From contig JBNKOC010000008.1 in NCBI GenBank assembly GCA_050294405.1, positions 59,332-123,331 of the forward strand: a stretch of DNA of 64,000 bases, read 5' to 3'. A model generated the notes under the pieces. It saw nothing but the letters and a program-made list of their open reading frames with translations. It had not been told where the DNA came from and made no database searches. Source of the stretch: Fibrobacteria bacterium. GTDB taxonomy: Bacteria; Fibrobacterota; Fibrobacteria; UBA11236; JADFYW01. Made by a program: the position numbers and the translations under genes. Of this stretch, positions 27,783-53,267 are shown one piece after another; the stretch's first letter is position 1, and each line of letters starts with the position of its first letter.

Positions 27783-28286
27783 TTAGTTCTGACTCAGCCT
27801 TTTGATGTAAAACAATATTAGCTCAAGCTCTTTATCTTTAATATCGAACTTGGGCATTAGGTTTTCCATATACCCATCGGGTATCTGGGAATTGGGTTCT
27901 CGAATTGAATTGCGGATGTACTCTTCATCCGCAATTATTTTTTTACCGTTGTTTAACACAACCTCCGAACCGTACAACCCCTTAAAACTGGGCCCCCGAA
28001 ATTTGGATCCATCCACAGAGTGGCATCCTAAACAACCGTATTGCCCCATTACCATGCTGGCTTCGAATTCTTTTTTGGCAATGGAATCCGCATTTTCCGT
28101 ATTGTTGTCTTCGGTGGAGGGGTCTTTGTTCTCCGCGCTGCAATTGCTGAACAAAAATCCGGAAGCTAATAAACATAGTCCTAAAAACTTAAGGGCAGCT
28201 CTAAAAATGCCTTCCCGGATTCGCGCGGCTGCATTTTCGCTCGGTCTCACCTTCGGAAAACCATTTTTAGAGCTGCCCTTATACAT
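27783..28286 (-). CDS. monohaem cytochrome c lipoprotein
   Basis: CLGCH haem-binding motif. Signal peptide with lipobox LFSNC. The start was moved to the internal Met (MYKGSS) because the ORF-track start overlaps yrdC by 65 nt. Confidence 0.6.
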   Translation of the reverse strand: MYKGSSKNGFPKVRPSENAAARIREGIFRAALKFLGLCLLASGFLFSNCSAENKDPSTEDNNTENADSIAKKEFEASMVMGQYGCLGCHSVDGSKFRGPSFKGLYGSEVVLNNGKKIIADEEYIRNSIREPNSQIPDGYMENLMPKFDIKDKELELILFYIKRLSQN

Positions 28287-28884
28287 AAACAATACCTTCA
28301 CCTTGGCGAATAAGTTCAGGCTGGCCGTTTGTAAAATCAACAATGGTAGAAGGGCTGATGTTTAGAGGGCCCATGTCTGCCAAGGCGCTCACTGCGCTTT
28401 TTAAAAAAGGGTTTAAGGGTTCTGGAATTTCCGAAATCCCTGTTTCTGAATCGAACATGGATTTAATAATAAGGGGATAATCCGAAGACTCCAATAAATG
28501 CGACATAAATTTTGAGGAGGGAAATTTAACTCCCATTTCAGGTCTTCTGGCTTCCAGAATTTTTTTTCCATGGTTGGTCGCTGGTAAAATAAAAGTAAAG
28601 GGTCCGGGAATAAGGGGTTTCATGTATTTATAGGCAAAGTTTTCCACTGTGGCATATTCTGTAACCTGACGCATATCTTTAAAAAGCAAGGTCCTGGAAG
28701 ATTTATCGCTGGTCTCTCTTAATTTGTAAAACTTTTTTAAAGCCTGTTTGGAGCCCACATTGGCTGCAATGCAATATCCCGAATCTGATGGGCATATAAT
28801 CATGCCACCGTCCTCCAGAATTTTTACCAGGTTGTTTAAAAAGCGCTTTTCCGGGTCCTGGGGATGTAACCTATAATATTCCAT
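28279..28884 (-). CDS. L-threonylcarbamoyladenylate synthase, YrdC/TsaC family
   Basis: YrdC-domain pattern (GGMIICPSDSGYCIAANV...). Confidence 0.8.
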   Translation of the reverse strand: MEYYRLHPQDPEKRFLNNLVKILEDGGMIICPSDSGYCIAANVGSKQALKKFYKLRETSDKSSRTLLFKDMRQVTEYATVENFAYKYMKPLIPGPFTFILPATNHGKKILEARRPEMGVKFPSSKFMSHLLESSDYPLIIKSMFDSETGISEIPEPLNPFLKSAVSALADMGPLNISPSTIVDFTNGQPELIRQGEGIVYV

Positions 28885-28919: not shown

Positions 28920-29306
28920 TCATAAAATTGCCAAAAAAGCGTTTTTAAAATGAGAAATTTGGTAGGGAAAGCTGGACATGTTAACGCTTACAACATCAAA
29001 GCGGCAGTTACAGGGCTTTAACTTATTAAAGCTAAGCCAGGCATTGGCTATTTTATAAATTTGTTTTTTCTTTTTGGAGCCAACCCAGGATTCCGGTGTC
29101 CCGGCTGAATTGCTAAGGCTTGATTTTACTTCTATAAACACCAATTCTCCCTTTGGACAGCGTGCAATAATATCTAATTCTCCCTTACGAATTCTGAAAT
29201 TCTTGTCCAAAATTTTATAACCCCGGCTATGTAAAAACTTGCAGGCTATCAACTCCCCTAATTGGCCTTTTTGTCGGCTATTTGATGTATTCATAAAACG
29301 CGGCAA
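28920..29306 (-). CDS. YraN/UPF0102 family endonuclease-like protein
   Basis: GELIACKFLHSRGYKILDKNFRIRKGELDIIA...FIEVKS. Confidence 0.7.
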   Translation of the reverse strand: MPRFMNTSNSRQKGQLGELIACKFLHSRGYKILDKNFRIRKGELDIIARCPKGELVFIEVKSSLSNSAGTPESWVGSKKKKQIYKIANAWLSFNKLKPCNCRFDVVSVNMSSFPYQISHFKNAFLAIL

Positions 29307-29371: not shown

Positions 29372-30829
29372 TCATTCATAGGGCATGGCTAATAGCCTTA
29401 TAGCCTTCACTTTAACCTGAGAAGCTTCCGGAAGAGAGTTTTCTAATTTCACCTCTAAATTTTCGGCGATAAAATCAGGTAAATCCAAATATTGTGGTCC
29501 TGGAATAGCAGCTAATTCTAATCTGGCCTGCTCCCGCCCGGAGCTATGTAGGCTTAAAATTATTTGTTGGCCGGTTATCGCATTGGGCGCGGGGAGGAGA
29601 TCCAGCGTTAAACCCATAATTAAAGATTGGGATTTTAATTGGACGGCTAAATTTAACCCTTCTAAGATGGGCAAGTCCAAATTGTCCAGTTTCACTTCTG
29701 CCGAAGTTTCATCAGAAAGAAGTTGGCTGCTTTTGGGGCTTATCCATTTTGAATTTTGTGATCTCGAATCCAAAAACTTGTTTGCTAACCACATTCCCAT
29801 AAAGCCCAGAACAAATATAAGTAAGGCCAGGGAAATAAAAGAGCGGGCGGACTTCACCTGAACCACTCTTCTTCTGTCTGTGGACCGCCTGTCCGTAATT
29901 CTTTTTTCAGGTCCTGTATCTTTTTGCTGGGGGGAAGTACTAAAAGGAAGACTATGGCTCGCTTTTTTAATGGAGTCCATATCCTTCAACAATTCTGTGG
30001 CGTCTTTGTAGCGCTCTTCCTTATTTTTCTTGAGGCATTTTGCCACAATTAATTCCAGCCGTGGGTTTACATTCTTTTTGAGTTTCGAAAGTAAGGGAGG
30101 GTTTTCGTGAACTTGTTTATATGCAATGGAAAGGGGGTTTTCTCCCATAAAAGGTGGTTTTCCGCAAACCATTTCAAATAAAACCACGCCAAAGGAATAA
30201 ATATCGCTTTGAAAATCAATTTTATGGCCTTGGCATTGCTCAGGCGACATGTATTCGGGAGTGCCCATAGCCATTCCGGTAGTGGTTAGGCGGGTTCCCC
30301 CAGGCGTTTGGGCAATTCCAAAGTCAGAGATGTAGGCTCTTCCATCTGAATCGAGCATTACATTGCCCGACTTTATGTCGCGGTGAACAATTCCCTTCGA
30401 ATGGGAATATTTTAGCCCGCGGCAAATTTGTTTGCCAATGTTAATGACTTCATCTTCAGGCAAACCTTTTTTGCGTTCAATAATTTTGCAAAGGGTTTCC
30501 CCCCGTATATATTGCATAGCAATATAGCGTCGGTGATCTATTTCCCCGTAATCGTAAATGGTAACAATATTTTGATGTTGCAGGCGGGAAATGGCGAAAG
30601 CTTCGGAATTAAAGCGTTCGATAAAATCAGGAGTAGATAAAACCACAGGTAATACTTTTAAGGCGACGTACCTATCCAGTTTAAGGTGCTTGGCTTTATA
30701 TACATCGCCCATACCACCTCTGCCAAGGAGCTCTACAATGCGATAGGCGCCGAATTCAGAATTGATATTTAGGGACCCTGCTTTCATACTGGGCTTTGTG
30801 GGTGGGTCAAAGGTTATGGTTTCTGGCAT
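29372..30829 (-). CDS. Hanks-type Ser/Thr protein kinase with one TM helix and an extracytoplasmic C-terminal domain
   Basis: GRGGMGDVYKA, VALK, HRDIKSGNVML, DFGIA, TPEYMSPE. TM helix at LALLIFVLGFMGMWL. Confidence 0.85.
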   Translation of the reverse strand: MPETITFDPPTKPSMKAGSLNINSEFGAYRIVELLGRGGMGDVYKAKHLKLDRYVALKVLPVVLSTPDFIERFNSEAFAISRLQHQNIVTIYDYGEIDHRRYIAMQYIRGETLCKIIERKKGLPEDEVINIGKQICRGLKYSHSKGIVHRDIKSGNVMLDSDGRAYISDFGIAQTPGGTRLTTTGMAMGTPEYMSPEQCQGHKIDFQSDIYSFGVVLFEMVCGKPPFMGENPLSIAYKQVHENPPLLSKLKKNVNPRLELIVAKCLKKNKEERYKDATELLKDMDSIKKASHSLPFSTSPQQKDTGPEKRITDRRSTDRRRVVQVKSARSFISLALLIFVLGFMGMWLANKFLDSRSQNSKWISPKSSQLLSDETSAEVKLDNLDLPILEGLNLAVQLKSQSLIMGLTLDLLPAPNAITGQQIILSLHSSGREQARLELAAIPGPQYLDLPDFIAENLEVKLENSLPEASQVKVKAIRLLAMPYE

Positions 30830-31037: not shown

Positions 31038-32240
31038 TCAATTTTTTGAGCGACCCAGAAGCTCTAAAAGTCCAGTTTTTAGCCTTTCAAGTCCTTTTTC
31101 TAAATCAGAAACATCGCTGGTAAAAGACATTCTGGCCCATCCTTCAATTCCAAATGCACTACCGGGCACCAGGGCTAATTTTTGTTTTTCCAGGAACCAA
31201 TGGCAAAACTCTTCACTGCTTTTAATAGGTTTTTCCTTATTTAAGAAGTTGGAAATGTTAAGTAAAAAGTAAAAGGCTCCTTCGGGACTAATAAAAGACA
31301 GTTTTTCAATACCCTTAAGTTTACTTTCCACAAGTTCTTTTCTTTTTGAAAGGCTGTCTCTCAAATCATCAATATAGGATTGCGCTTTTTCATAAGCACC
31401 CAGGGCGGCATATTGGGAGGGAAGGGAAGGATGATGGGTGGATTGGCCTTGAAAAGCAGTGATTAACTTGGCAATGGGGGTGGGGGCTGCGGTAAAGCCA
31501 ATTCGGTAACCGGTCATGGCATAGCGTTTGGAAACTCCATTGATAATTATGGTTCGCTGATACATTTCCCGCGACAAAGATGCAGGACTTTGAATGGAAC
31601 TCTCTCCATAAACAAGGCTCTCGTATATTTCATCAGAAAGGCAGTACAAATCATTTTCCGCAATTATTTGCCCTAACTTTTCCAACTCTTCCCCATCAAT
31701 AACGGTCCCAGAAGGGTTGTTGGGTGAATTTAAAACGATGGCCTTGGTTTTTGGACTTATGTATTGGGCTATATCCTTGGCTTGAGGCTTAAAATTTTTT
31801 TTAGCGTCCGTGGGAATTATTTTTGGAACCGCTCCTAAGAGACGTACCAGTTCCGGGTAGGTAACCCAGTAGGGCGAAAAAATCAAAATTTCATCCCCTG
31901 GATTGATAACCGCGTTTAACGCATTAAAAAAGGCGTGCTTAGCTCCAGAGGAAACAGTGATATCTTGGGGCTGGTAATGGAGATTGTTTTCTATTTCTAA
32001 TTTTTTACAAATAGCTTTTCGCAATTCTAACAATCCCGCAGGAGAATTGTATTTGGAATAATCTTTTTCAATAGCCTTAATAGCGTTTTTTTTTGCCTGC
32101 TCTGGCGAGGCTTCTTTAGGTTCGCCGCTGGTAAGGTTAATGATATCTTCTCCCCTGGCTTGCATTTCCTTAGCCAGGGAGTCTAAGGAAACTGTTACAG
32201 ATGGAGCCAAGTCTAAAATTTTATGGGAGAGGGCTTTCAC
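31038..32240 (-). CDS. PLP-dependent class I aminotransferase (AspAT-like)
   Basis: NPSGTV, SKRYAMTGYRIGF (PLP-Lys); 400 aa. Start overlaps the MMPL stop by 20 nt. Confidence 0.85.
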   Translation of the reverse strand: MKALSHKILDLAPSVTVSLDSLAKEMQARGEDIINLTSGEPKEASPEQAKKNAIKAIEKDYSKYNSPAGLLELRKAICKKLEIENNLHYQPQDITVSSGAKHAFFNALNAVINPGDEILIFSPYWVTYPELVRLLGAVPKIIPTDAKKNFKPQAKDIAQYISPKTKAIVLNSPNNPSGTVIDGEELEKLGQIIAENDLYCLSDEIYESLVYGESSIQSPASLSREMYQRTIIINGVSKRYAMTGYRIGFTAAPTPIAKLITAFQGQSTHHPSLPSQYAALGAYEKAQSYIDDLRDSLSKRKELVESKLKGIEKLSFISPEGAFYFLLNISNFLNKEKPIKSSEEFCHWFLEKQKLALVPGSAFGIEGWARMSFTSDVSDLEKGLERLKTGLLELLGRSKN

Positions 32241-34638
32241 TATTTTCGCTCAATTGATTGATTTTTTTTGAATCCAAATATCCTAATAAAAACGGGGAAA
32301 ACAAAAGGGTGGCCAAAAAGGTCGACCCGATTCCCAAAATAGCTGTCAGCCCCATACTTTTCAATCCTAAATGGTGAGAAAAGCCAAGCCCAATAAAGCC
32401 GGCAAGAGAAGTTAGGGAGGTAGCAGTAATAATAACCCCTGTTTTTCTTAGAACCCAATATAAGGAGCCTATGCCTTCTTCCTTGTATCTATGGAATAAA
32501 TGCACACTGTTATCGATGCCAATCCCAATCATGGCTGGCAAAACTACAAGGTTGAAATAATTAATGCGTATTGAAAAAATACGCATGAGTCCCATTGTCC
32601 AAAGAATACCCAAAATTAAGGGTATTAATACCAAGACAGTGGCTTTTAGGGAGCGGGTATTCAACAAAATTAAAGCGAACACAATGAACAAGGATAATAT
32701 CAAAGCTTTAATGGTGTCCGGTATCATGATATTCAACAAATCTGCATACACCAGCGCCATTCCAGAACTTTTGTATACATTGCCTTCGGGGGTTGTAATT
32801 TCTCTTACATCATTTGCAAAGGCTCTGCAATTTATCCCGCTGGATAAATCCACCGAAGGAAAAATAAAAACGAAATTTTCTTCTAACTGGTTTTTACCTA
32901 TAAACTTTTTCTTAAAGCTAGGAGGCAAGTCGGTTAATCCCAAAGGTTTTACGTTCCAGTTGTTTCGCAATCGGATTAACTCAGCAGGCAACAAACTGTC
33001 GGGAGTAGAGCTAAAAACAGGTTCCAGCTTTTCTTTTATCTCATTTATGATTTGTATTTTTTCCGTTTGGTTTTGAGGCAGGAGGCTGTGGAGAGAGTAA
33101 ACCGAATGTATAGTTGGACTTAAGCTATCCGTCTTAATTTGCCTTTGAATTTCCCGAGTAACCTCCGCCGCTTTGTCCGGGGAATCGGTCATAATTACGG
33201 CTGGCGTGACTATGGCTTCACCTGCAATGTGCAGTAAACTGTCTGCAGTCTCATTGGAGTTGGCAAAATCCAGTTTTTCAAAATTGTATTCAAAACGGGT
33301 TTGAACCCCTAATATTAAACTAAATATGCTGATAAAAAAAGTGGCTATGCCAAAGGGCTTCCAGAGAGAAAATTTCCGTCGCTTAAAAAGATTTAAGCTA
33401 TACATACGGCTGCCAAAAACATAAACCAACCGTTGCTTTTCTAAAAGAATCAGGATACAGGGAAACACCAATAATATGGCAATCATGGTGCAAATAATTC
33501 CCAATCCCGCTATGATGCCAAATTCCGAAAAACCTTTAAACTGAGTTATGGTAATACTAAAAAAAGCCCCTGCTGATGTGAGCGCGCTGGTAGAAATGGC
33601 AGGTCCTGTTTCTAATGTTATGGTTTCAAAAGCCACCTCAGCCCCAAATCCTTTGCGGCGTTCTTCTACATATCTGGCTAATAGGTGTAAGGCGGCGTCT
33701 AAACCAAGACCAATTAAAATAATTCCCAGAGATAGGGAAACTAAATTCAAGTGCCCCACAAAAATTTTAGCCAGGGCCAAAGTCCAGATAACCCCCATTC
33801 CCAGAGGAACAAGAGCTAATATGGGGCCTAGTGGCATTCTAAAATAAAACAAGGCAATTAGAAAGAATATGGCAAAAAAGGAAACCCAACCCGATTCTGT
33901 AACTTCCCTCATAAGCCTACCTTCATTTTGGATAGTTTCCAAAACTTCACCAGTCATTAAAATATCAAGACTACTATCCTGTTTTAAGGGGTCAATAACT
34001 CTATTTACATCCCGGTACAAAGATTTACATTGAGTGTAATTGGATACATCAAAATTTGGAAATATATGCAGAATCAAAATGGTTTCATCCAGGCTTCCGT
34101 AATAGGGTTTTAGACGCCTGTTGTATTTTTGTTCTAAATCCTTAAAGTCCAGTTCTGGCTCGACGGGCGAATCTAGACTGTCTTCAGAACTAAGGTCTAC
34201 TAATAAGGGATTGTTTTTTGCCTGGTGAAAAACTACCAGGCTATCGACCCTTTCCTCAATGGTTTTTAAATCTTCCAGGTTGATGTATAGCAGTTGGTTT
34301 TCTGAATAATATTGAATTTCATTTTTATAGTCCAAAAAATTAATGTTGGGGTGAGTGGAGAGCGCATTGGCTGTTTGTTGTAAAGTCCTTTTGTTAAAAT
34401 TGGAGTCGGGAGATTGAAATATTAAGGTAAGTTTTCCCAATCCTCCAAAATTTTCTTCTGTTTTTTTTAGCAGTTGAATGCTGTGGAATTCGTTAGGGAG
34501 TACTTCTAAAAGAGAGGATTTTAAATGAATTTTATTAGCATAAAATGCGGCGATTGCAGTGAGTAAAAGACAAAGGCATATGACAGTAACGGGTCTTTTA
34601 TGTAACTTATGAAATAATCTGCAAATAAGAGTATACAT
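32221..34638 (-). CDS. MMPL/RND-superfamily exporter (two SSD-like 6-TM bundles)
   Basis: 805 aa with two blocks of about 6 TM helices separated by soluble loops; typical MMPL architecture. Confidence 0.75.
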   Translation of the reverse strand: MYTLICRLFHKLHKRPVTVICLCLLLTAIAAFYANKIHLKSSLLEVLPNEFHSIQLLKKTEENFGGLGKLTLIFQSPDSNFNKRTLQQTANALSTHPNINFLDYKNEIQYYSENQLLYINLEDLKTIEERVDSLVVFHQAKNNPLLVDLSSEDSLDSPVEPELDFKDLEQKYNRRLKPYYGSLDETILILHIFPNFDVSNYTQCKSLYRDVNRVIDPLKQDSSLDILMTGEVLETIQNEGRLMREVTESGWVSFFAIFFLIALFYFRMPLGPILALVPLGMGVIWTLALAKIFVGHLNLVSLSLGIILIGLGLDAALHLLARYVEERRKGFGAEVAFETITLETGPAISTSALTSAGAFFSITITQFKGFSEFGIIAGLGIICTMIAILLVFPCILILLEKQRLVYVFGSRMYSLNLFKRRKFSLWKPFGIATFFISIFSLILGVQTRFEYNFEKLDFANSNETADSLLHIAGEAIVTPAVIMTDSPDKAAEVTREIQRQIKTDSLSPTIHSVYSLHSLLPQNQTEKIQIINEIKEKLEPVFSSTPDSLLPAELIRLRNNWNVKPLGLTDLPPSFKKKFIGKNQLEENFVFIFPSVDLSSGINCRAFANDVREITTPEGNVYKSSGMALVYADLLNIMIPDTIKALILSLFIVFALILLNTRSLKATVLVLIPLILGILWTMGLMRIFSIRINYFNLVVLPAMIGIGIDNSVHLFHRYKEEGIGSLYWVLRKTGVIITATSLTSLAGFIGLGFSHHLGLKSMGLTAILGIGSTFLATLLFSPFLLGYLDSKKINQLSENSESPLP

Positions 34639-34657
34639 GAAAGGCTTTAACCAAACA

Positions 34658-35704
34658 TTAATTCAGGACAATTGTTTTCGTGGAAATCGAATCTGAGGCT
34701 GCCAGGTTATTTACTCTGAATTTTTTAATTCCCAATATTTGCCCGTTTTCCAATTCTACTTTTATTTTCCATAATCCATCTTCAATGTTATTTTTATAGG
34801 TGTAACCCCTGTATCCCGAACTGCGTCCGCTTTTAATTTGAAAGCCAATTTTATCCCGTTTTTGCCAGCTTTTTTGCCTCTCGTTATAATATTCCCATTG
34901 ATGGTAAATTTTTGTTTCAATACCATCGGGAGCAAATATGGAGCTAAAACAGGAAACAGGCTGATTTAACGGCTTTTGAATATTTTGTCTTCCCGGTTTT
35001 AAAAAGTAATACCAGGGCTTCTTTGCTACCGTGGCGCGGTACTCATTGTTTTCTTTTTGAATTTTCAAACTAAGCGCCATATTTTTTTGTACGAGAGGAA
35101 CCGGGGGAATAATGTTTGCAATAAAGAAAAGAACCAAAATTATTTGCCCCAGAACGGAGGGCATTAGATTTTTAATGTTTTGCCGGGTTAGTTTTTTTAG
35201 GCCATAAGTTATGGCAAGGGCTAAAAGGCAGCTCAGGATAAACCAAATGGAATGTATACTTCCGAATACATGGGGCAATCCAAAATTTATAAACATGGTT
35301 CCGCAAAGAGTAAATAAAGTCCAACTAATTATTTTTTTCTGGTAATAATCAGCCAAAAACTCATTGAGAACTAAAAATACCAAAAGCAAAAAAACTGTGA
35401 TATATCCCCAAATATGGGAACTGGACTTAAAATAAAACACTACTAATGCGCTGAATATTCCGCCAAGAAAAAATTGCAAGCCCAGGGGTATGTATTTGCT
35501 CCATTTTCCCCCTAATTTTTTTTCCATGGCAAAAAGGCAAAACCCCGCGCCTAAATAATATGCCATTATGATATATAGATCGCTGGGTTTGATTTGCCGT
35601 CCCAAGGTAAAAGAGTCCCATAAAAAACCTGCAAAAAAGGCAATAGCAGGAAAATATCGGCTAACCCGCTTGTATTTGTCGGCGACGTTCTTTCTAATAC
35701 TCAT
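34658..35704 (-). CDS. hypothetical polytopic membrane protein with a C-terminal soluble beta-rich domain
   Basis: About 8 TM helices followed by a ~120-aa domain (..WKIKVELENGQILGIKKFRV..). Confidence 0.35.
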   Translation of the reverse strand: MSIRKNVADKYKRVSRYFPAIAFFAGFLWDSFTLGRQIKPSDLYIIMAYYLGAGFCLFAMEKKLGGKWSKYIPLGLQFFLGGIFSALVVFYFKSSSHIWGYITVFLLLVFLVLNEFLADYYQKKIISWTLFTLCGTMFINFGLPHVFGSIHSIWFILSCLLALAITYGLKKLTRQNIKNLMPSVLGQIILVLFFIANIIPPVPLVQKNMALSLKIQKENNEYRATVAKKPWYYFLKPGRQNIQKPLNQPVSCFSSIFAPDGIETKIYHQWEYYNERQKSWQKRDKIGFQIKSGRSSGYRGYTYKNNIEDGLWKIKVELENGQILGIKKFRVNNLAASDSISTKTIVLN

Positions 35705-35746
35705 TGAGTAAGATATAGTTTTTTGCGGCCATTTCCACAGATGTTT

Positions 35747-36625
35747 TTATTGGGGTCGGGTAATAAGTCCTGTAATAAATCCCTTTTTTAGCTCCCAAAC
35801 TCCCTTGAAAAGGATTGCCCAATCCCTTTGACCATTTTTGCGGCTGTGGAATTCTAAAAAATAAAGCATTCTCCTTAAAAAGGGCTTTATGTTAACTAAA
35901 AGACCATGTCTGCCCCAGAAGTAAGCCTCATTGAAACATTGGTGAAACACAAAATTTTCTTTGAAATTTTGGGAACGGCAACCTCCAAGGGGAATTTTTC
36001 GATGAAATATTCTCATTTTTGAATTGAAGTAAATTTTTCCGCCCTTATTTAAAAATCGCCTGGCGAAATCAATTTCTTCTCCCTGTGAGCTGCCTTTAAA
36101 GTGCTTTGAAAATTTCAAGGACTTTGCCCAGTGGAGGGGGATTATGTTATGGCCACCTGGAAACATTTCGCAGAAAAAATTGGACTTGGAATTGTAATTG
36201 GTTTTTATTTCTCCTGTAACCAAATCCACGGTTCCTACACCCTCCACATCGGGGACGTCTTGTTGGTCCACCGCTCCGGCAATAATATGATTTGGAAATT
36301 GTAATATGCTTTGTTTAGCCATTTCAATTAAGTCGGAGTTTGGAATAATATCATCATCCAGAAACATAACATGGCCACCGGCGGCTTTATTGATACCAAA
36401 ATTTCTCGCTTTGGTCAGGGAAGGGGGATGGTTCCAGTAGAACTTAATATTGTCCCGTTGGCTAAACTTTTGCGGGATTTCCAGAGGAGGGGAGTTTTGA
36501 TCAATAATTAATATTTCATCGCTATCCTTTATTTGATTGGCAAGAACATCTAAGGTTTCGAATAGAACCTCACTTCTTCCCAAGCTGGGAATAATTATGG
36601 AAATGTTTGGACTTGGGTTATTCAT
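35747..36625 (-). CDS. family 2 glycosyltransferase
   Basis: ISIIIPSLGR...ILIIDQNS...FLDDDIIP (DxD); 292 aa. Confidence 0.75.
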   Translation of the reverse strand: MNNPSPNISIIIPSLGRSEVLFETLDVLANQIKDSDEILIIDQNSPPLEIPQKFSQRDNIKFYWNHPPSLTKARNFGINKAAGGHVMFLDDDIIPNSDLIEMAKQSILQFPNHIIAGAVDQQDVPDVEGVGTVDLVTGEIKTNYNSKSNFFCEMFPGGHNIIPLHWAKSLKFSKHFKGSSQGEEIDFARRFLNKGGKIYFNSKMRIFHRKIPLGGCRSQNFKENFVFHQCFNEAYFWGRHGLLVNIKPFLRRMLYFLEFHSRKNGQRDWAILFKGVWELKKGFITGLITRPQ

Positions 36626-38733
36626 TAAAATTGCTGCAATTTTGTTTTAAAAGCCCTTATTTTTTGTTGTTCACATAAAAGATGAAACTGAGCGAGATTT
36701 TTCCTAAGTTCATAACCGTCATACAACTCTTTTTGCTGAAAGAAGTTTTCTAAATTTTGGCCAGATGGCAAATTTTTTGCAAGAGGATAACATGCCATGT
36801 TTCCACCACTGTTTTGATAATTAAAACATTCCACTTCGTTTCCCGCATTTAAGTAGGGGTGAAAATATTTTCCTAAAAAAGCTTTCCATTGGAAATTTCC
36901 TTTTTCATTTTCTTCCCAAATAAGAAAGTTTAAAATGTCTTGGCTCACTTCAGCTTCTTTATCGTAAAAAACATCTTTACTGGAATCGGATTGGGCTAAA
37001 TAATACCAATGCAGCAGGCTTTTTATGTAGCTAAGTTTTGCGATGATGCTCTTATCCTTTTTCGCTTTGCCAGCCATTTTTTCTGATAAAATTTTTAAAG
37101 CCATTTCTCTTTCAAGACTATAGTTTTCCCTGGGTGTTTGGCTTAGCATTCCGTTCAATTCTACCCAAAGACTGTCTTTTTTTTGAAATGTATGTTTTTC
37201 TTTTTGCCTTAACTCAAAAACCACATTTTTTGTGCTCTGGGCAAGCTCAATTCCGGCAAGGCTGTTTTCCCAATTTCCCAATTGGGAGATAATATTTTGA
37301 GCCTTTTCCAGGTATTGGATTTTTAGAAATAATAAGCCAAGTTGCGCGTAATAGTTTTTATCCGGGATTGAAAAATGGTCTGCCACCCATAAGTAAATTT
37401 CAAAAAGGCTTTTGGCTCCGTCAAAACTAAGCTCGGAATTTAATAATGCGATATTATTCAAGTATATCCTGGTGGAGTCCAGGTATTCCATATGTTCGGA
37501 AACTATAGATTTAGAAAACCGGACAGCTTTTAAATAATTCCATATTGATTTTTCCCAATTTTCTAAACCCGAAGAATCGGGTATTGTGCAATCCTGTATT
37601 TGGGTTTGACGGGAATAACATTGGTAGAGTTGCTTGATTTGTAACAACTTTTTTTCTCCACTACTGTTCTTCTCAGCTAAAGTCACATCAACGGATTCCG
37701 CAATAAAATCCATACTTTCACTTTTGACATTTCTAAGTAAATACAAGCAAAAAGAATAATAATCGGAGAATGACCAGTTTTTGATTTGTTCATTTTCAAA
37801 AATTATTTTGGGATGGATTAGGCTGTCTAAAATCAGGTCCGCTAAGCTAAAAGTCAGTAATAGTTTTTTTTCCTCTTTTAATTCCCAGTTGATGTAGTTA
37901 ACTAGGTTGCTGCTTATTTCTTCATATTCTTTTTGCTTGTCTTTACTGGCTTTACAACCCTGGTAAAAAAAATTGTATAAACTGGATTGCTGCAATTTTG
38001 GATTGTCTTTTTGGAGAAAAAGCTTTTCTAATTGCAGGCAACTGAGCTCTTTTTGTCCATTGATATAACTTAAATCAGCCAAGTGGAACAGAAGGCTGTC
38101 TTTGATCTCCTTCTCCAGATTTTTGTTGAGCAGTTCCTTTAGCTTAGCAATGGCCCCATTAACATTTCCTTTTTGGCTCTCCAGCTCAATAATTCTGAAC
38201 TCTGCTTCGGCTAACCTCTGGTAATAGTCCTTTTGAGTTATGGGCAAAAAAAAGAGTTTCGATATTTTCTGAAGTTCTTCCAGGGCTTCTCTATATTGAT
38301 TTTCCCTGTAGTATATTTGGTATAAGTAAAAACGGGCCAAAGAGCCAAAACGGGTGCTTCCATCAAAGCTTTGTGTGAGCTCCTTAAAAAGGCTCTTCGA
38401 CTTTTCCAATCGCCCCTGATTCCACAACAAAGCTCCCAGATTTAATTGTATTTCCGGCAATTGAGGGGAGTGGGAAAAATCTTTTAAGTATTCCCCATAC
38501 ATATGCCATAAGTTTTGGTAAAAAAGAGAGTCGGGTTTTTCTTTTTCCTGGCCGGATTCCAGGGCAAGGTTAAATACATTCAGGATTTCGTTTTCACTGA
38601 GGTTTTTTATCCCTGGGTTGGATGTTACGAATTGATTAAAACGCTCAAATTTTTCCACTTGGCTAAAGCCCATGAAGGGCAATAACAGGAAAAGCCCTGT
38701 GTTAATTTTTTTTATTGTTTTGATCTTAACCAA
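36625..38733 (-). CDS. hypothetical secreted alpha-helical repeat (TPR-like) protein
   Basis: Signal peptide; 702 aa, Leu/Lys/Tyr-rich helical repeats. 1-nt overlap with the GT2 start. Confidence 0.3.
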   Translation of the reverse strand: MVKIKTIKKINTGLFLLLPFMGFSQVEKFERFNQFVTSNPGIKNLSENEILNVFNLALESGQEKEKPDSLFYQNLWHMYGEYLKDFSHSPQLPEIQLNLGALLWNQGRLEKSKSLFKELTQSFDGSTRFGSLARFYLYQIYYRENQYREALEELQKISKLFFLPITQKDYYQRLAEAEFRIIELESQKGNVNGAIAKLKELLNKNLEKEIKDSLLFHLADLSYINGQKELSCLQLEKLFLQKDNPKLQQSSLYNFFYQGCKASKDKQKEYEEISSNLVNYINWELKEEKKLLLTFSLADLILDSLIHPKIIFENEQIKNWSFSDYYSFCLYLLRNVKSESMDFIAESVDVTLAEKNSSGEKKLLQIKQLYQCYSRQTQIQDCTIPDSSGLENWEKSIWNYLKAVRFSKSIVSEHMEYLDSTRIYLNNIALLNSELSFDGAKSLFEIYLWVADHFSIPDKNYYAQLGLLFLKIQYLEKAQNIISQLGNWENSLAGIELAQSTKNVVFELRQKEKHTFQKKDSLWVELNGMLSQTPRENYSLEREMALKILSEKMAGKAKKDKSIIAKLSYIKSLLHWYYLAQSDSSKDVFYDKEAEVSQDILNFLIWEENEKGNFQWKAFLGKYFHPYLNAGNEVECFNYQNSGGNMACYPLAKNLPSGQNLENFFQQKELYDGYELRKNLAQFHLLCEQQKIRAFKTKLQQF

Positions 38734-40364
38734 AGATTTTGATCCATGGCTTGGGAATCGCCCAGCTTGTATCTGAAATTACCACTAACAACATACAAAT
38801 TACCCTCTTTATCCCGCAGCCGCCCTTCCGTTAGGGTTCCTTCCACCAATTGCTCCTTGCTGTCCAGGGTAGAACGAATACTGGTCCCCTCATCAAGAGC
38901 AATACTTGTATCTGAGTAGATCCAAACAGAGCTGTCGGCATTAATGGGAATTTGGGTGAAAATATAATAGGCGGGGTTTTCTATGGTGATTAATTTGTCC
39001 TTGTTTTGTCCGGGAGTTGTAACAAATCCCAGTGGAAAATTTCCGAACTCCTCCTCGGCATAAATTTGAATACTATCTGCTCCATTTTCATTATGTATGC
39101 ATTTCGAATCAAAATAATACTTAAGGGTATCCCCCCCATAGAACAAATGGAAGTAATCCTGCTGAGGAAATCTGCTCAAAGGGTTTTGCGCTATGGACTG
39201 GGAGTCCGCAGGGGAGAGTAGGGCGTTTAAGCCTGAGCCTTTTATACTCAATTTGTTATTTTGATATTGTGCATTTACAGATAAATTCAGGCTGTCGGTT
39301 TCCAAAAGCAAATTTCCATTTTCCACATTCCAATTTAAAAACAGGGGCCAATCTTCTTTGTTTGTAATTACCTTAATTTGTCCGTTGGCATAGAACAATA
39401 AATCATAATATTGGCCAAAATGGTTTTCCACCGGATTTCTATTGTAACCCATGGAATCCGATCGCCAGTAATTTTCAGTTAGAAATTCCAAGTCCACAAA
39501 GTTTTGGTTTTTTTTAGAGCTTGCATAAAATTGTATGTATTCCAACTCCTGCCCTGCCAAACTGTCCAGTTGAAGCAGGTTTTTAGAACCCAATGGCCAG
39601 AGTCTGAGGGAGTCGTAATGGCCTTCCAGAGTGTTGAAATAGTCAATAAGGTAGGTTTCACTAGAGTTGTTATTGGATAATTTAAGGCTGTCTCCGAAAA
39701 TTTCCGCATCCATAACAATTGTATCCAATTGGCCCCGCAAAGATTTGTAAATGGTCACCGATTCTTCCTCAAATACATAGTAGGTGATTTCCCGGCTAAA
39801 ATCTTGGGGCTGAAACTGCCTATCCTCATTTCTGTACCCCGAATACTCCCAGGTTTTGGCGCTGGAATCGCTTTTCATATACAAGTGACCTACAAAATCT
39901 TCCTGGGATGGAACGGGGATTTTTTCAAAATGTATGTAGTCTTCGGAATCTTCAAAATACAGGTTCAGGTAATAGCCTTCGAAATAAAGCCTGGTTTTGA
40001 GGCTGGCTTCCCAATTTTCATTTTCTCCATTTGTCCCGGAAAAAGATAAACGCTTTGCATTCTGGTTGTATGTTATCGTCCCATTTAGATAGCCGGGGAA
40101 AATATCAGCGGATTTATTCTTTATATATACAGAAGAGTCTTTTAAAATTTCAATGCGGATTTGAGAATAGGACTGAATCTTGTCGTTTTGCGCTTCGAAT
40201 AGATAGGTGGAAATCCATTCTCCTTCAAAAAGCTGAATGTTCCAGTCTGGCTCTTCGTTTATTATTTCATCCAGTTCATCCTGGGGATCCTGGAAATTAA
40301 CCGAGCAGGCCATATAGCAAAGCGCTCCCGCAAAAACGAAAAAAAGCGGAAATAAGTGTTTCAT
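38712..40364 (-). CDS. hypothetical lipoprotein (beta-rich, Tyr/Asn/Trp-rich)
   Basis: Lipobox ALCYMAC; 550 aa. Overlaps the next gene by 22 nt. Confidence 0.35.
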   Translation of the reverse strand: MKHLFPLFFVFAGALCYMACSVNFQDPQDELDEIINEEPDWNIQLFEGEWISTYLFEAQNDKIQSYSQIRIEILKDSSVYIKNKSADIFPGYLNGTITYNQNAKRLSFSGTNGENENWEASLKTRLYFEGYYLNLYFEDSEDYIHFEKIPVPSQEDFVGHLYMKSDSSAKTWEYSGYRNEDRQFQPQDFSREITYYVFEEESVTIYKSLRGQLDTIVMDAEIFGDSLKLSNNNSSETYLIDYFNTLEGHYDSLRLWPLGSKNLLQLDSLAGQELEYIQFYASSKKNQNFVDLEFLTENYWRSDSMGYNRNPVENHFGQYYDLLFYANGQIKVITNKEDWPLFLNWNVENGNLLLETDSLNLSVNAQYQNNKLSIKGSGLNALLSPADSQSIAQNPLSRFPQQDYFHLFYGGDTLKYYFDSKCIHNENGADSIQIYAEEEFGNFPLGFVTTPGQNKDKLITIENPAYYIFTQIPINADSSVWIYSDTSIALDEGTSIRSTLDSKEQLVEGTLTEGRLRDKEGNLYVVSGNFRYKLGDSQAMDQNLWLRSKQ

Positions 40365-40452
40365 TTCCGAAAAACCTTTTTAATTACCATGGATTAATTT
40401 TATTATACCTGCATTACAAAGGGAAAGCGCATATGGCCTTTCTGAAGGAGAT

Positions 40453-41070
40453 TTGGAAAAAGTGAATCCTGTTCGAAAAATATATGACTGGGTGTTGGGT
40501 TTGGCTCAATCTCCCTACGGCAGTTTTTGGCTTATTTTATTGGCAATTGCCGAATCTTCCTTTTTTCCTATTCCCCCTGACGTGCTGCTAATAGCCCTTT
40601 GTCTTGGAAACCAGAAAAAAAGCTGGACCTTTGGGCTGATTTGCTCGTTGGGTTCTGTGATAGGTGGGGTTGCCGGTTACGCTATCGGACATTTTATGTG
40701 GTGGAGTGGGGCTGAGTTTTCGGGATTTGCCCAATGGTTTTTTGACTATATCCCAGGTTTTAAAGAAGCCAAATTTTTCGAGGTAAAAGAACTGTACGAA
40801 AAGTTCAATTTCTGGATAGTTTTTGCTGCGGGATTTACCCCCATTCCCTATAAAATTATCACAATCTCCGCAGGGGCCTTTTCAGTGGATTTCGCCATGT
40901 TTTTAATAGCCTCAATGGTGGGTCGAAGCGCCCGTTTTATTCTAGTATCCGGTTTATTGTATTTTTTCGGCTATCCCATTAAAAACTGGATAGACAAGTA
41001 TTTTAACTGGCTGGCCATTATTTTTACCCTACTTTTGGTTGGCGGATTCTGGTTGATAAAGTTACTTTAA
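40453..41070 (+). CDS. YqaA/DedA-related (VTT-domain) inner membrane protein
   Basis: N-terminal SFWLILLAIAESSFFPIPPDVLLIAL motif typical of the YqaA family; 205 aa. Confidence 0.55.
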   Translation: MEKVNPVRKIYDWVLGLAQSPYGSFWLILLAIAESSFFPIPPDVLLIALCLGNQKKSWTFGLICSLGSVIGGVAGYAIGHFMWWSGAEFSGFAQWFFDYIPGFKEAKFFEVKELYEKFNFWIVFAAGFTPIPYKIITISAGAFSVDFAMFLIASMVGRSARFILVSGLLYFFGYPIKNWIDKYFNWLAIIFTLLLVGGFWLIKLL

Positions 41071-43335: not shown

Positions 43336-43983
43336 ATGAAGAATTTTAGAATCGCTGTCTGGCTTATGGTACTCGGCTTCCTATGTGCCACATCCACTTT
43401 GGCTCAGCAGGAATATCTGCTTCGCCCGGGAGACATTATTGTGGTTTCTGTTGTGGATAACCCAGAATTTTCTGTTCGCTCAAAAATCAGACCAGATGGC
43501 AGAATTAACTTTCCCGTTTTAGGTGACATCGAAGTTGCAGGTAAAAATACAACAGGAATTGTGGCCATGATGGAAGAAAAGCTACAGCCCTATGTAAATA
43601 ATGCTGCTGTTAGCGTGACGATTGAGCAGTATTTTGCCAATAAAATATTTTTGATTGGGGATTTAAATGCCAATGGCGAATTTGAAATTTTTGAACCTAT
43701 TGACGTTATTCGGGCTATAGCCATGGCTGGAGGTCTTAAAAACCCCAAAGCCAAAGAGGCAAGAATTATCAAAGGCAATGGGGAAGTTATTTCTGTTCCC
43801 CTTCGCAAGTTATTTACAACAGCCGGTGCCGCAAAAAATGAGAGCTATTTGCTACACCCGGGTGATACATTTTATGTTCCTAAACCGTTTAGCATTCCCT
43901 GGAGCTCATGGAATTTGGTGGTAGCGACCTTGTCCTCTACCATTGTGTTGTATTTCTTAATACAGCAGCTGGGCGGCAGCTAA
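43336..43983 (+). CDS. short Wza-like polysaccharide export protein (Poly_export/SLBB), PEP-CTERM-locus type
   Basis: Signal peptide. LRPGDIIVVSV Poly_export motif, SLBB segment. Only 215 aa with a C-terminal hydrophobic helix. Confidence 0.75.
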   Translation: MKNFRIAVWLMVLGFLCATSTLAQQEYLLRPGDIIVVSVVDNPEFSVRSKIRPDGRINFPVLGDIEVAGKNTTGIVAMMEEKLQPYVNNAAVSVTIEQYFANKIFLIGDLNANGEFEIFEPIDVIRAIAMAGGLKNPKAKEARIIKGNGEVISVPLRKLFTTAGAAKNESYLLHPGDTFYVPKPFSIPWSSWNLVVATLSSTIVLYFLIQQLGGS

Positions 43984-44002
43984 TTTAATTTTATAATATA
44001 CC

Positions 44003-44881
44003 TTGGTTACTATGGAAAAAGTGGAGAACAGCTATCTTTCCTTTTTCGCATTGCATAAATTCCCATTTGACGAGTCCAAAGACACGTCCTTCTTTTTTGA
44101 AAGTGACGATCATTTGGAAGCTCTGGAGAGGCTGGAATATATTGTAAATGACGGAAATATGAATTTTGGGCTGCTTACAGGCGAAGTGGGTAGCGGTAAA
44201 ACCATGCTTAGAATGGTTTTGGAAAACCGAATGGACCGAACCCAGTTTGAGCCCGCAGTTTTGGAAAACTCTTTTTATCCCTTTGAAGATATTGTTTATG
44301 AAATCATAACCCAAATAAAGAATATTTCCGGCCAGCATTTTTTCCTTCAGGAATCAGAGCTTCCAGCCCGGGGCGATAAATATGGATTAGTGAGTACTCT
44401 TAAAAAAATTATGGAGCTAATTCACCTTAAGGAAAATCGTCGGCTTGTCATAATTATGGACGAAGCCCAACAGCTAGATGTTAAGGATTTGGATGAATTA
44501 AAGAACCTAACCAATATTTCTGCAGATGGGGTCAATTTGGTGACCATCATTTTGGCGGGACAGCCGGAGCTAAGAGAAAAGGTAAGGGCGTTAAAACAGG
44601 TAGATCAGCGCATTAGCCTTCGATTCCACCTAAATAACCTACATTTTGAAGATACCAAAAAATACGTGGAGCACCGGCTTAAGGTAGCTGGCCATAAGTC
44701 CGGAAAATTGCTTTCCGATAAAGCATTAGAAGTCTTATTTCGTTATACCCTGGGCGTGCCAAGGGAAATCAATCGAGCCTGTAAATTATCCCTTGAACAT
44801 GCCTTTGCAAATGATAGAGGATTAGTAGAGGAAGAAATTGTAAAAACAGTTCTCGAGGATTTGGAACGCCATCGGTTATAA
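44003..44881 (+). CDS. ExeA-like AAA ATPase of EPS loci
   Basis: Walker A GEVGSGKTMLRMV, Walker B IIMDEAQ. Stop/start overlap TAATG with the next gene. Confidence 0.75.
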   Translation: MVTMEKVENSYLSFFALHKFPFDESKDTSFFFESDDHLEALERLEYIVNDGNMNFGLLTGEVGSGKTMLRMVLENRMDRTQFEPAVLENSFYPFEDIVYEIITQIKNISGQHFFLQESELPARGDKYGLVSTLKKIMELIHLKENRRLVIIMDEAQQLDVKDLDELKNLTNISADGVNLVTIILAGQPELREKVRALKQVDQRISLRFHLNNLHFEDTKKYVEHRLKVAGHKSGKLLSDKALEVLFRYTLGVPREINRACKLSLEHAFANDRGLVEEEIVKTVLEDLERHRL

Positions 44882-47838: not shown

Positions 47839-49393
47839 CAAAGCGGCAAAGGTCTTAGCATTAGCTTGTTTATCCCTGGCTCTTTTAATTACATCGGGTT
47901 ACGCTTATTGGGAATGGACCCAGCTGGAAACCGGAGAACCGGTTCAATACGCTCTGGTAGACGGGAACGTGGAACGTCCTGGTTATTACAAGATTACTGA
48001 ATTCACCACAAATTACGACTTGCTTTTGAAAGCAGGTCTTAACGATAGTTCCGAGATTAATCACATTCAGCTAATACAAGCTGCTAATCCAGAGCAGGCC
48101 ATTGAAGTGGAAGTAAGTAAAGAAAAGGTTGCGGCCAAAGCCTATACTAAATTTTTTGACCCCAAGGTGGTTTATTTTGAAGGGAATGTTACCGTTAAAA
48201 AGGAGCTTAAAATTGCAAATGTTAGGTATGAACAAGTTTTAGAAGAACAGGACAGGCTTTATACCAAGGCCGATGGAAAAGCCAGAATATCCTTCAAAAA
48301 TCTGGCGGAAATGGACGTAAACATCAATACTTCCATAAAAATAATGAACATGGACGATGAGGGGGAAATAGCCTTCACCAAAATCAAATTGGAAAATGGC
48401 TCTCTTTGGATTAAAGTTCCTAAAGATACTCCCGGATCTGTGTTAATTATCGAAACGCCCACTGCTGAACTAAGTCTTCCGGAAACGGAAGGGGAATTTA
48501 TAATTTCCGCTAAACCTGAGGAATCATCTATACATGCAGCCAAAGGTGCTGTAACTGTTAAGGAAATAAAAAGTGGCAAAAGCACCGTATTGTTAGAAAA
48601 TCAAATTATCGTCTTAAATTCGAATATTCAGGATTTAGACCCACTGCAACAAAATTTTGCTGAAGATGCTGCTAAAGAAGCCTTCGGAGATTTGGATAAA
48701 TCCCTGGCTAGATTTAAAAAGAGCCGTGAAGAAGCTTCCATGTTACTTACTAGTCATGGGTTTAATATGTTAATTTCTTTGATACCAAATAAAAAAAGAA
48801 TGGTAATAATGGATATTCCAAAAAATACCTATGTGGGAGATTATGTGGATGGGATTTTTAAATTAGACCAGAGTTTGCTCTTGGCCGGTAGTGAAATTAC
48901 ACGTGGGGTTGTGGAAAGGCTTTTGGGAAGACCTGTTCAGTACGTTGTGGATGTAGCCATTTCAGATTTGTATGCCTTTGCTGGGGATATAAATAACCTG
49001 AATGTTGAGGTGGATGGTTCCGCCGCACTTGTTTTAGGTATCCCTGCTGGATTACAAATGTTAAATAAGGATAAGATAATCCAATTCTTAGATCCCAAAT
49101 TGCCTGGAGGCTACGCAGCTGCTGTAACCAGGCAAAAAAAAGTGTTTTATGCCTATTTGAAAAAAATAAAACAAGAAGGAGTTGGAAAATCTGCGGCCAC
49201 AATAATGAGCCTGGTTTCCAGGCTTAGGACAAATTTATCAGCAAAAGATGCATTAAAATATTTTGAGATGTATACAGCAGAAGCAAATTGGCAAGTTTTA
49301 AATATTCAGATGCCCAGCAAACAAATAATTAAAGGCAATTTGGTAATGCAAAGTCCAGACTACGGTCGTATAAACCGCCTTTATACCCAATAA
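47822..49393 (+). CDS. membrane-anchored LytR-CpsA-Psr (LCP)-like protein (tentative)
   Basis: N-terminal TM. C-terminal RMVIMDIPKNTYV...VERLLGRPVQYVVDVAISDLYAFAGD matches the LCP core (IPRDxYV ... LLGIxIDYYV). 17-nt overlap with the wzc-like gene. Confidence 0.45.
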   Translation: MKLLNNKAAKVLALACLSLALLITSGYAYWEWTQLETGEPVQYALVDGNVERPGYYKITEFTTNYDLLLKAGLNDSSEINHIQLIQAANPEQAIEVEVSKEKVAAKAYTKFFDPKVVYFEGNVTVKKELKIANVRYEQVLEEQDRLYTKADGKARISFKNLAEMDVNINTSIKIMNMDDEGEIAFTKIKLENGSLWIKVPKDTPGSVLIIETPTAELSLPETEGEFIISAKPEESSIHAAKGAVTVKEIKSGKSTVLLENQIIVLNSNIQDLDPLQQNFAEDAAKEAFGDLDKSLARFKKSREEASMLLTSHGFNMLISLIPNKKRMVIMDIPKNTYVGDYVDGIFKLDQSLLLAGSEITRGVVERLLGRPVQYVVDVAISDLYAFAGDINNLNVEVDGSAALVLGIPAGLQMLNKDKIIQFLDPKLPGGYAAAVTRQKKVFYAYLKKIKQEGVGKSAATIMSLVSRLRTNLSAKDALKYFEMYTAEANWQVLNIQMPSKQIIKGNLVMQSPDYGRINRLYTQ

Positions 49394-53264: not shown

Positions 53265-53267
53265 CAC

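Follow-up and report, generated by a model that had tools for sequence, protein, structure and literature searches.

A candidate glycosylated-lipid export module adjoins a housekeeping gene block in a Fibrobacteria genome

Introduction

A stretch of 64,000 nucleotides from a Fibrobacteria genome (assembly GCA_050294405.1, contig JBNKOC010000008.1, positions 59,332 to 123,331 of the forward strand), which we call the window, contains a run of six tightly packed minus-strand genes. They encode a lipoprotein, a large protein with similarity to tetratricopeptide repeats (TPR), a family 2 glycosyltransferase (GT2), a membrane protein with a DUF2914 domain, an MMPL-type RND exporter, and an aminotransferase. 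By its best protein matches, the window belongs to an uncultured member of Fibrobacterota. The question that this locus raises is whether all six genes serve one pathway. An earlier note on this DNA read them as a translationally coupled envelope operon whose aminotransferase, GT2, and exporter would together produce an aminated glycolipid or lipid-linked polymer and export it. The supply of specialized lipids to the outer membrane is poorly known in diderm bacteria outside Proteobacteria, and the envelopes of Fibrobacterota have hardly been studied.

Our analysis favors a different division of the locus, to which we assign a probability of roughly 55%. We propose that it is a composite of two blocks, a module restricted to Fibrobacteria that makes and exports a glycosylated lipid and an adjoining housekeeping block. 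Block A, from 40364 to 32221 on the minus strand, would comprise the lipoprotein, the TPR-like protein, the GT2, the DUF2914 protein, and the exporter, which is HpnN-like. Block B, from 32240 to 28279, would comprise the aminotransferase, which is a class Ib aspartate aminotransferase (AspAT), a Hanks-type Ser/Thr kinase, a UPF0102 protein, and a Sua5/YrdC-family protein.

Results

The 805-aa protein is, judged by its sequence, a member of the MMPL/RND superfamily. Pfam family PF03176 matches it in two stretches (118.9 bits, cut-off 20.5), and its hydrophobic segments cluster at residues 246 to 449 and 641 to 788, in addition to an N-terminal transmembrane segment. The exporter is closest to HpnN and lies outside the cut-offs of all named subfamilies: it scored 302.2 bits against the HpnN model TIGR03480 (cut-off 751.85), 181.5 bits against the HpnN model NF052374 (cut-off 1100), 200 bits against the HAE3 model TIGR00921 (cut-off 351.9), 176 bits against the BstA model (cut-off 1400), and 127 bits against TIGR00833 (actII), which describes mycobacterial-type MmpL proteins (cut-off 874.7). 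Similarity to AcrB-type pumps was negligible (15 bits). Among PDB sequences, the top match was HpnN (5khn, 1.6e-31), and MmpL4/5 matched at 1e-11. The earlier description of this protein as an MMPL-type RND exporter therefore holds for the superfamily and needs a finer placement, nearest to HpnN and under the curated cut-offs. No domain of hopanoid biosynthesis (shc, hpnH, etc.) was found among the window genes scanned. Given these relationships, the exporter likely moves a lipid.

Aspartates are present in the window protein at positions 314 (TM4) and 709 (TM10). These are positions at which acidic residues would be expected for an RND proton relay; across the orthogroup they vary, with D, S, or E at 314 and L, D, or N at 709.

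We scanned genomes with an alignment of the exporter and obtained 443 relatives; the best 80 of the 443 were fetched, and all of them came from FCB phyla. Individual loci are cited below by L numbers. In Fibrobacteria, members of the lipoprotein and GT2 families were found upstream of the RND gene in every lipoprotein locus with enough flanking sequence, that is, in ten genome loci and three metagenome loci, the latter having come independently from a search with the lipoprotein. The association spans three arrangements, between which the exporters are 37 to 44% identical. The window has the order lipoprotein-TPR-GT2-DUF2914-RND. Locus L018 has lipoprotein-TPR-GT2-RND-aminotransferase, with gaps or overlaps of only a few nucleotides. 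The large L012-type clade and L026 have overlapping lipoprotein and GT2 genes, an opposite-strand HAD-like gene, and then the RND gene. In L026 (7896-9030), which comes from a long-read metagenome-assembled genome, the GT2 orthologue is split into two open reading frames, which points to a frameshifted pseudogene or to a sequencing error.

The region upstream of the exporter is also populated by other genes. In most Fibrobacteria, the HAD-like gene, which has a DLDDT motif and no match in Pfam, and the RND gene are divergent and 24 to 219 nt apart (e.g., L012:5000-9907 and L005:7797-9971), and behind the HAD-like gene lie a small GT2 of the PpgS/dolichyl-phosphate-hexose type and then a bona fide Pcm. 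In many loci without the lipoprotein-GT2 module, this different, small GT2 is divergent from the RND gene and matches PpgS (84 bits), AglJ, and ArnC-type proteins, resembling polyprenyl-phosphate sugar synthases. Within the clade of the window, L008 also has the small GT2 divergent from its RND gene, and L094 has a GT2-like match on the minus strand immediately upstream of the RND gene.

The 550-aa protein encoded by the first gene of block A is, by sequence, a bacterial lipoprotein, with a hydrophobic segment at residues 4 to 22 and a lipobox Cys20-Ser21 that is invariant in 10 homologues. Its profile matched nothing in Pfam or among PDB sequences. A word-index protein search found only one relative, and the family has 31 representatives (E ≤ 1e-3) among 1.84 billion proteins. 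It is the founding member of a small family that is found only in Fibrobacteria and has no Pfam domain. An AlphaFold2 model built on a 25-sequence alignment was confident (mean pLDDT 85.6, pTM 0.75) and predicts four tandem all-beta modules (residues 48-148, 171-282, 299-386, and 404-533) of 8 to 10 strands each, three of which are followed by short helices. Comparison of the four modules with hhalign revealed no internal sequence repeats. In a Foldseek search of the PDB, the matches with the highest probability were 4nw4 (DUF4822), 5yvf (BFA1), and 2o62 (DUF3598), which we take to be tandem beta-barrel proteins of the calycin type; the surface lipoproteins XusB and LbpB were matched as well.

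The 292-aa protein is, on the evidence of its motifs, a soluble GT2 with a GT-A fold and of the non-processive type. It matches PF00535 at 54.7 bits (cut-off 23.3), and the motifs FLDDDI (the DXD motif), QGEEID, and GGCR are invariant in 10 orthologues, in which the QxxRW motif is absent; no transmembrane segment is predicted. Profile matches (chondroitin synthase, TarP-like, PglI, heparosan synthase) cover only the generic N-terminal GT-A domain. The protein reaches no named equivalog, the best being HpsN with 71 bits against a cut-off of 425, and it has no match to HpnI at E ≤ 0.01.

The other two proteins of block A are less widespread. From its sequence, the 702-aa protein appears to be a secreted, mostly helical protein with TPR-like repeats, and a lineage-restricted accessory; it matches TPR_19 at 24.7 bits, just under the cut-off of 25, and YbgF and BamD-type models more weakly. 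Its only homologue among the fetched loci is an 846-aa protein in the same position in L018. We inferred a TTG start, which gives the protein a signal peptide resembling that of the L018 homologue; the exact TTG-start sequence is absent from the protein collection, and gene callers therefore took a different start. The 348-aa protein, by its sequence a polytopic membrane protein, carries a C-terminal DUF2914 domain (PF11141, 51.6 bits, cut-off 23.6) at residues 263 to 331 and at least four hydrophobic segments within residues 72 to 202. It has no homologue at any related locus, and we regard it as a lineage-specific accessory of the cluster. Two candidate counterparts were rejected: the 286-aa opposite-strand gene between GT2 and RND in relatives is the HAD-like gene with the DLDDT motif, and a 264-aa membrane protein that follows the RND gene in other phyla gave no match. 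A literature search returned nothing useful on DUF2914 or on glycolipid export in Fibrobacter. The earlier note had found no recognizable domain in the 550-, 702-, and 348-aa proteins and had suggested profile searches of the three; its view stands for the 550-aa protein, has to be given up for the 348-aa protein, and is qualified by subthreshold TPR matches alone for the 702-aa protein. It had also suggested structure prediction, which for the 550-aa protein gave the four-module model described above.

The aminotransferase is, by sequence, an AspAT of class Ib, possibly a prephenate aminotransferase (PAT). PF00155 matches it at 2.2e-64 over profile positions 2 to 361 of 361, and it aligns over its full length with the class Ib AspAT/PAT enzymes (Thermus AspAT 1bkg; Arabidopsis PAT 5wmh; 6f77). 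The matches to AspATs in the PDB range from 4e-87 to 1e-76, and those to the whole AspAT/PAT set from 4e-87 to 1e-74. The enzyme shares the pyridoxal phosphate (PLP)-lysine and carboxylate-binding motifs of these relatives; NSPNNPSG, DEIY, SKRYAMTGYR, and ARMSF can be read in its sequence. We noted no difference from them beyond the score for the archaeal-type equivalog NF041091 (398 bits, under the cut-off of 550), a shortfall expected for a distant phylum. The known sugar aminotransferases are members of the DegT/DnrJ/EryC1 family, and the match to that family (PF01041) is partial, reaching 27.2 bits over profile positions 42 to 145 of 360 beneath the stronger PF00155 match. The GTG start is backed by an in-frame stop just upstream and by an N terminus that aligns with orthologues from residue 2. 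Identity to homologues is 43 to 50% in Fibrobacterota and 42 to 45% in Clostridia, a near-equal similarity that is to be expected of a core enzyme.

The genomic contexts of the orthologues agree with a housekeeping role. The gene order is ilvD-aminotransferase-kinase-UPF0102-Sua5 in L086, fur-aminotransferase-kinase-UPF0102 in L087, and ilvD-aminotransferase-(reverse-strand kinase)-kinase-UPF0102-Sua5 in L088. In genome GCA_028287465.1 the two blocks are separate: its RND locus L003 (lipoprotein, GT2, opposite-strand HAD-like gene, RND) lacks the aminotransferase, which lies on another contig after ilvD (L088). Downstream flank of about 1.5 kb or more was available for 33 Fibrobacterota RND loci; 5 of them (L002, L007, L018, L094, and L095) have the order RND-aminotransferase-kinase, as does the window, and 28 do not. 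The kinase is the constant downstream partner of the aminotransferase. The order aminotransferase-kinase-UPF0102 is kept in L002, L007, L086 to L088, L094, and L095, with Sua5 next where the sequence extends, and in L018 the aminotransferase and kinase are followed by the contig end. Where synteny breaks, the aminotransferase remains with the kinase block. In L002 and L095, the RND-aminotransferase pair is present and the GT2 and lipoprotein are not.

A neighbor-joining tree of the aminotransferases is congruent with the RND tree. The window enzyme groups with the L002 and L007 relatives, and the enzyme of L018, which is linked to an RND gene, groups with the ilvD-linked enzymes of L086 and L088. 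Because the trees are congruent, we conclude that the enzyme is not a dedicated paralogue but a single orthologue in each genome, placed differently with respect to the pump from genome to genome. The earlier note named as grounds for abandoning its proposal that the aminotransferase be a conserved housekeeping AspAT found next to unrelated genes in relatives, with the overlap not conserved, and this is largely what we found. The exception concerns the junction itself: the overlap of the RND and aminotransferase genes recurs, with 20 nt in the window, 19 nt in L095, and 4 nt in L018. The juxtaposition, which occurs in the window's clade and in L018, may be old, and the aminotransferase is likely cotranscribed with the pump through read-through.

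The kinase has a Pkinase domain (1.6e-58), a transmembrane segment at residues 331 to 349, and a C-terminal outside domain of about 135 aa. In the order of transcription it comes after the aminotransferase, downstream and not upstream as the earlier note had it.

Outside Fibrobacterota, the exporter has orthologues of 30 to 35% identity in Gemmatimonadota, Latescibacterota, KSB1, and Calditrichota, which account for about 50 of the 82 loci that we compared. Conserved neighbors in these roughly 50 loci are MlaC-like proteins (37 loci), a fusion of nucleotidyltransferase and CDP-OH_P_transf domains (34), and TolC-like outer membrane proteins (OEP; 32); LPG_synthase_TM (HpnL-like) proteins, a flippase-type gene, and oxidoreductases are further frequent neighbors. 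These partners place the orthogroup in polar-lipid synthesis and transport from the inner to the outer membrane. No partner of the MlaC, OEP, CDP-alcohol, or LPG_synthase_TM type occurs in the window. The operons with OEP, MlaC-like, LPG_synthase_TM, and CDP-alcohol genes in L050 (5215-12460), L040 (2543-13720), and about 30 to 37 further loci have the appearance of a pathway dedicated to the synthesis and export of a polar lipid.

Discussion

A role in lipid or glycolipid export is plausible for the envelope cluster, and this part of the earlier interpretation survives, as do the co-orientation and close packing of the lipoprotein, GT2, membrane protein, and RND genes; the part given to the aminotransferase does not. 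Under the two-block interpretation, the GT2 would work on the cytoplasmic side of the inner membrane and glycosylate a membrane lipid or a lipid-linked acceptor. The RND pump, powered by the proton gradient, would then draw the product out of the inner membrane and into its own periplasmic domain, and the lipoprotein, which would be anchored in the outer leaflet and have the TPR protein as a scaffold, would take the product and carry or bridge it to the outer membrane, a role analogous to that of the MlaC-like and TolC-like partners in other FCB phyla and to the one proposed for HpnM, HpnS, and HpnT in hopanoid systems. Block B abuts block A, is probably transcribed through read-through, and would take no part in the chemistry.

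Several points weigh against this interpretation. The physical link between the lipoprotein and the RND exporter and the identity of the exported substrate as a glycosylated lipid are both inferences. Whole-chain TM-scores of the lipoprotein model are low (0.14 to 0.30), as expected when domain orientations differ, so the label of a lipocalin-like lipid binder is not established. The nearest characterized relatives of the GT2 build polysaccharide or wall polymer and not glycolipid. Most lipoprotein-GT2 loci belong to one clade, in which the opposite-strand HAD-like gene parts the GT2 from the RND gene, and the conserved neighborhood could therefore reflect inheritance and not function. Three members of the window's own clade (L002, L008, and L095) have the RND gene with no lipoprotein or GT2 nearby, and the L005-type clade also has it without the module. 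Finally, the recurrent overlap of the RND and aminotransferase genes makes coexpression of enzyme and pump likely and could carry regulatory meaning.

That overlap, together with the adjacency of the two genes in six distinct loci, also speaks for the original proposal of one pathway, shared by the aminotransferase, the GT2, and the RND pump, for producing an aminated glycolipid or lipid-linked polymer and exporting it. We now consider this very improbable. The enzyme belongs to AspAT class Ib and overlaps DegT/DnrJ/EryC1 only partially, its orthologues follow ilvD or fur and keep the kinase and not the pump, its tree is congruent with that of the RND exporter, and the lipoprotein-GT2-RND set and the RND-aminotransferase pair each occur without the other component. 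The conservation of the pair, which the earlier note had proposed to examine, is seen in the window clade and in L018, the pair being absent from the other Fibrobacterota loci with usable flank, and the aminotransferase is best described as a housekeeping enzyme that only adjoins the exporter module. We give a similarly slight chance to a role of the RND protein in the efflux of drugs, solvents, or metabolites, with the upstream genes as unrelated cargo. Its superfamily and the TolC-like OEP genes that accompany orthologues in other phyla would fit this role; however, the AcrB-type match is negligible, neither the window nor the annotated genes of orthologous operons include a membrane-fusion (periplasmic adaptor) protein, the closest characterized relatives (HpnN, BstA, and MmpL) are all lipid movers, and the conserved partners are MlaC-like lipid carriers and phospholipid head-group enzymes.

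The main alternative, itself unlikely but less so, is that the lipoprotein, the TPR protein, and the GT2 assemble a polysaccharide, glycoprotein, or surface glycan, with an independent RND exporter that shares the neighborhood by descent only. TPR proteins and lipoproteins are common in polysaccharide export, the best named relatives of the GT2 (HpsN, HpsE, EpsD, chondroitin synthase, TarP-like, and PglI) act on exopolysaccharide or wall polymer, a Wza/Wzc locus lies 3 kb away, and in most loci the opposite-strand HAD-like gene stands between the GT2 and the RND gene. Yet the other lipoprotein-GT2 loci lack the Wza/Wzc block and always have the RND gene, which led us to reject the idea that the cluster belongs to that export locus. 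Moreover, the cluster has no flippase, polymerase, or priming transferase, the GT2 and RND genes are packed into one transcription unit in both the window and L018, and in other Fibrobacteria the RND gene is repeatedly found beside a different, small GT2 of the polyprenyl-phosphate type.

RND lipid exporters with lipoprotein or periplasmic partners are already known (HpnN, MmpL, and BstA); what is new here is the accessory lipoprotein family. MmpL transporters are exporters of envelope lipids whose genes often cluster with genes for biosynthesis. The mycobacterial MmpL proteins (MmpL3 and MmpL4/5) have PF03176 in common with the window exporter but are more distant from it than HpnN is, and here the host is a diderm member of Fibrobacterota and polyketide and mycolate genes are absent. 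In the BstABC system for sterol transport in Methylococcus, the inner-membrane RND protein BstA works with periplasmic and outer-membrane-associated binding proteins (PMC11713862); the window exporter matches BstA well under the cut-off, and neither BstB- or BstC-type proteins nor sterol genes accompany it. The model proposed for HpnN passes lipid from the RND pump to a periplasmic shuttle and on to an outer-membrane lipoprotein, and the proposed hopanoid partners are HpnM (MlaC-like), HpnS (an MlaA-like lipoprotein), HpnT (lipocalin-like), HpnL, and HpnI, a GT2 (preprint PMC12324291). The HpnL/HpnM/HpnN arrangement described there is paralleled by the neighbors of the non-Fibrobacterota orthologues. 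The window cluster shares the logic of an inner-membrane RND lipid pump, a periplasmic or outer-membrane lipid handler, and a nearby GT2. It differs in that its exporter has only about 25% identity to HpnN and falls far under the HpnN cut-offs, its neighborhood has no hopanoid genes, and its partner is an unrelated four-module lipoprotein and not MlaC, MlaA, or DUF2147.

A broader hypothesis, which we offer tentatively and consider doubtful, has the lipoprotein family, the GT2, and the HpnN-like pump acting as a previously undescribed route, specific to Fibrobacteria, that makes a glycosylated lipid and brings it to the outer membrane with the lipoprotein as periplasmic carrier or bridge. The route would belong, as one branch, to an RND lipid exporter family that spans the FCB phyla and elsewhere has MlaC-like and TolC-like partners and CDP-alcohol head-group enzymes, and the branches together would constitute a third kind of inner-to-outer-membrane lipid pathway beside the Mla/Lpt-type and HpnN pathways. 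The FCB-wide orthogroup provides concrete candidates for testing, with partners that swap by lineage (MlaC-like and TolC-like proteins as opposed to lipoprotein and GT2 in Fibrobacteria). The locus also illustrates that a shared pathway cannot be deduced from an overlap of stop and start codons alone, since the gene coupled in translation to the lipid pump here encodes a housekeeping aminotransferase.

Layout of the locus and surrounding genes

The open reading frames, strands, and coordinates of the six coupled genes (Table 1) are as the earlier note had given them, and so are the junctions. The lipoprotein and TPR-like genes overlap by 22 nt, the TPR-like and GT2 genes by 1 nt (TAATG), and the RND and aminotransferase genes by the 20 nt discussed above; gaps of 42 nt and 19 nt separate the GT2 gene from the DUF2914 gene and the latter from the RND gene. 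A gap of 208 nt separates the aminotransferase from the kinase. Such tight packing is ordinary for bacterial operons and is not unusual per se.

Table 1. Positions in the window of the genes in blocks A and B and of the divergent neighbor
Gene	Product length (aa)	Position	Strand	Pfam match
Lipoprotein	550	38712-40364	minus	
TPR-like protein	702	36625-38733	minus	
GT2	292	35747-36625	minus	
DUF2914 membrane protein	348	34658-35704	minus	
RND exporter	805	32221-34638	minus	
Aminotransferase	400	31038-32240	minus	
Hanks Ser/Thr kinase	485	29372-30829	minus	
UPF0102 protein		28920-29306	minus	PF02021
Sua5/YrdC-family protein		28279-28884	minus	PF01300
DedA/VTT-family membrane protein		40453-41070	plus, divergent	PF09335, 44.2 bits

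An Rfam scan of the full window gave no match. In a scan for promoters and terminators, promoter-like sites occurred at chance level, terminator-like hairpins showed only a modest excess, and no site marked an operon boundary. A 9-bp hairpin with a T-run at 40347-40369 (minus strand) includes the ATG of the lipoprotein gene; it could hide the start codon or be a chance feature.

The G+C content of the cluster genes is approximately 0.36 to 0.43. It is lowest in the TPR-like gene (0.358) and the DUF2914 gene (0.369), with 0.385 to 0.43 in their neighbors, and these two genes are also the least conserved pair among relatives. Whether the divergent DedA/VTT gene belongs to the envelope module is uncertain; a DedA/VTT homologue also adjoins the RND locus in L008.

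The polysaccharide-export block at 43336-49393 lies between serA and a gene for a 709-aa TPR protein. It encodes a Wza-like Poly_export protein, an AAA_22 ATPase, a 985-aa Wzc-like protein (GNVR/AAA_31) with a Cds6_C domain, and a FecR/LytR-like protein. The TPR gene comes directly after serA in both L011 and L012, and the export block is therefore an insertion or a lineage-specific island. Beyond the export block, a run of signaling genes at 52029-57515 encodes a PAS histidine kinase, a sigma-54 response regulator, a second histidine kinase, and a HAMP-GGDEF protein, and it is followed by genes for a TPR-TonB_C protein, an SLT-LysM transglycosylase, and an SppA-type peptidase.

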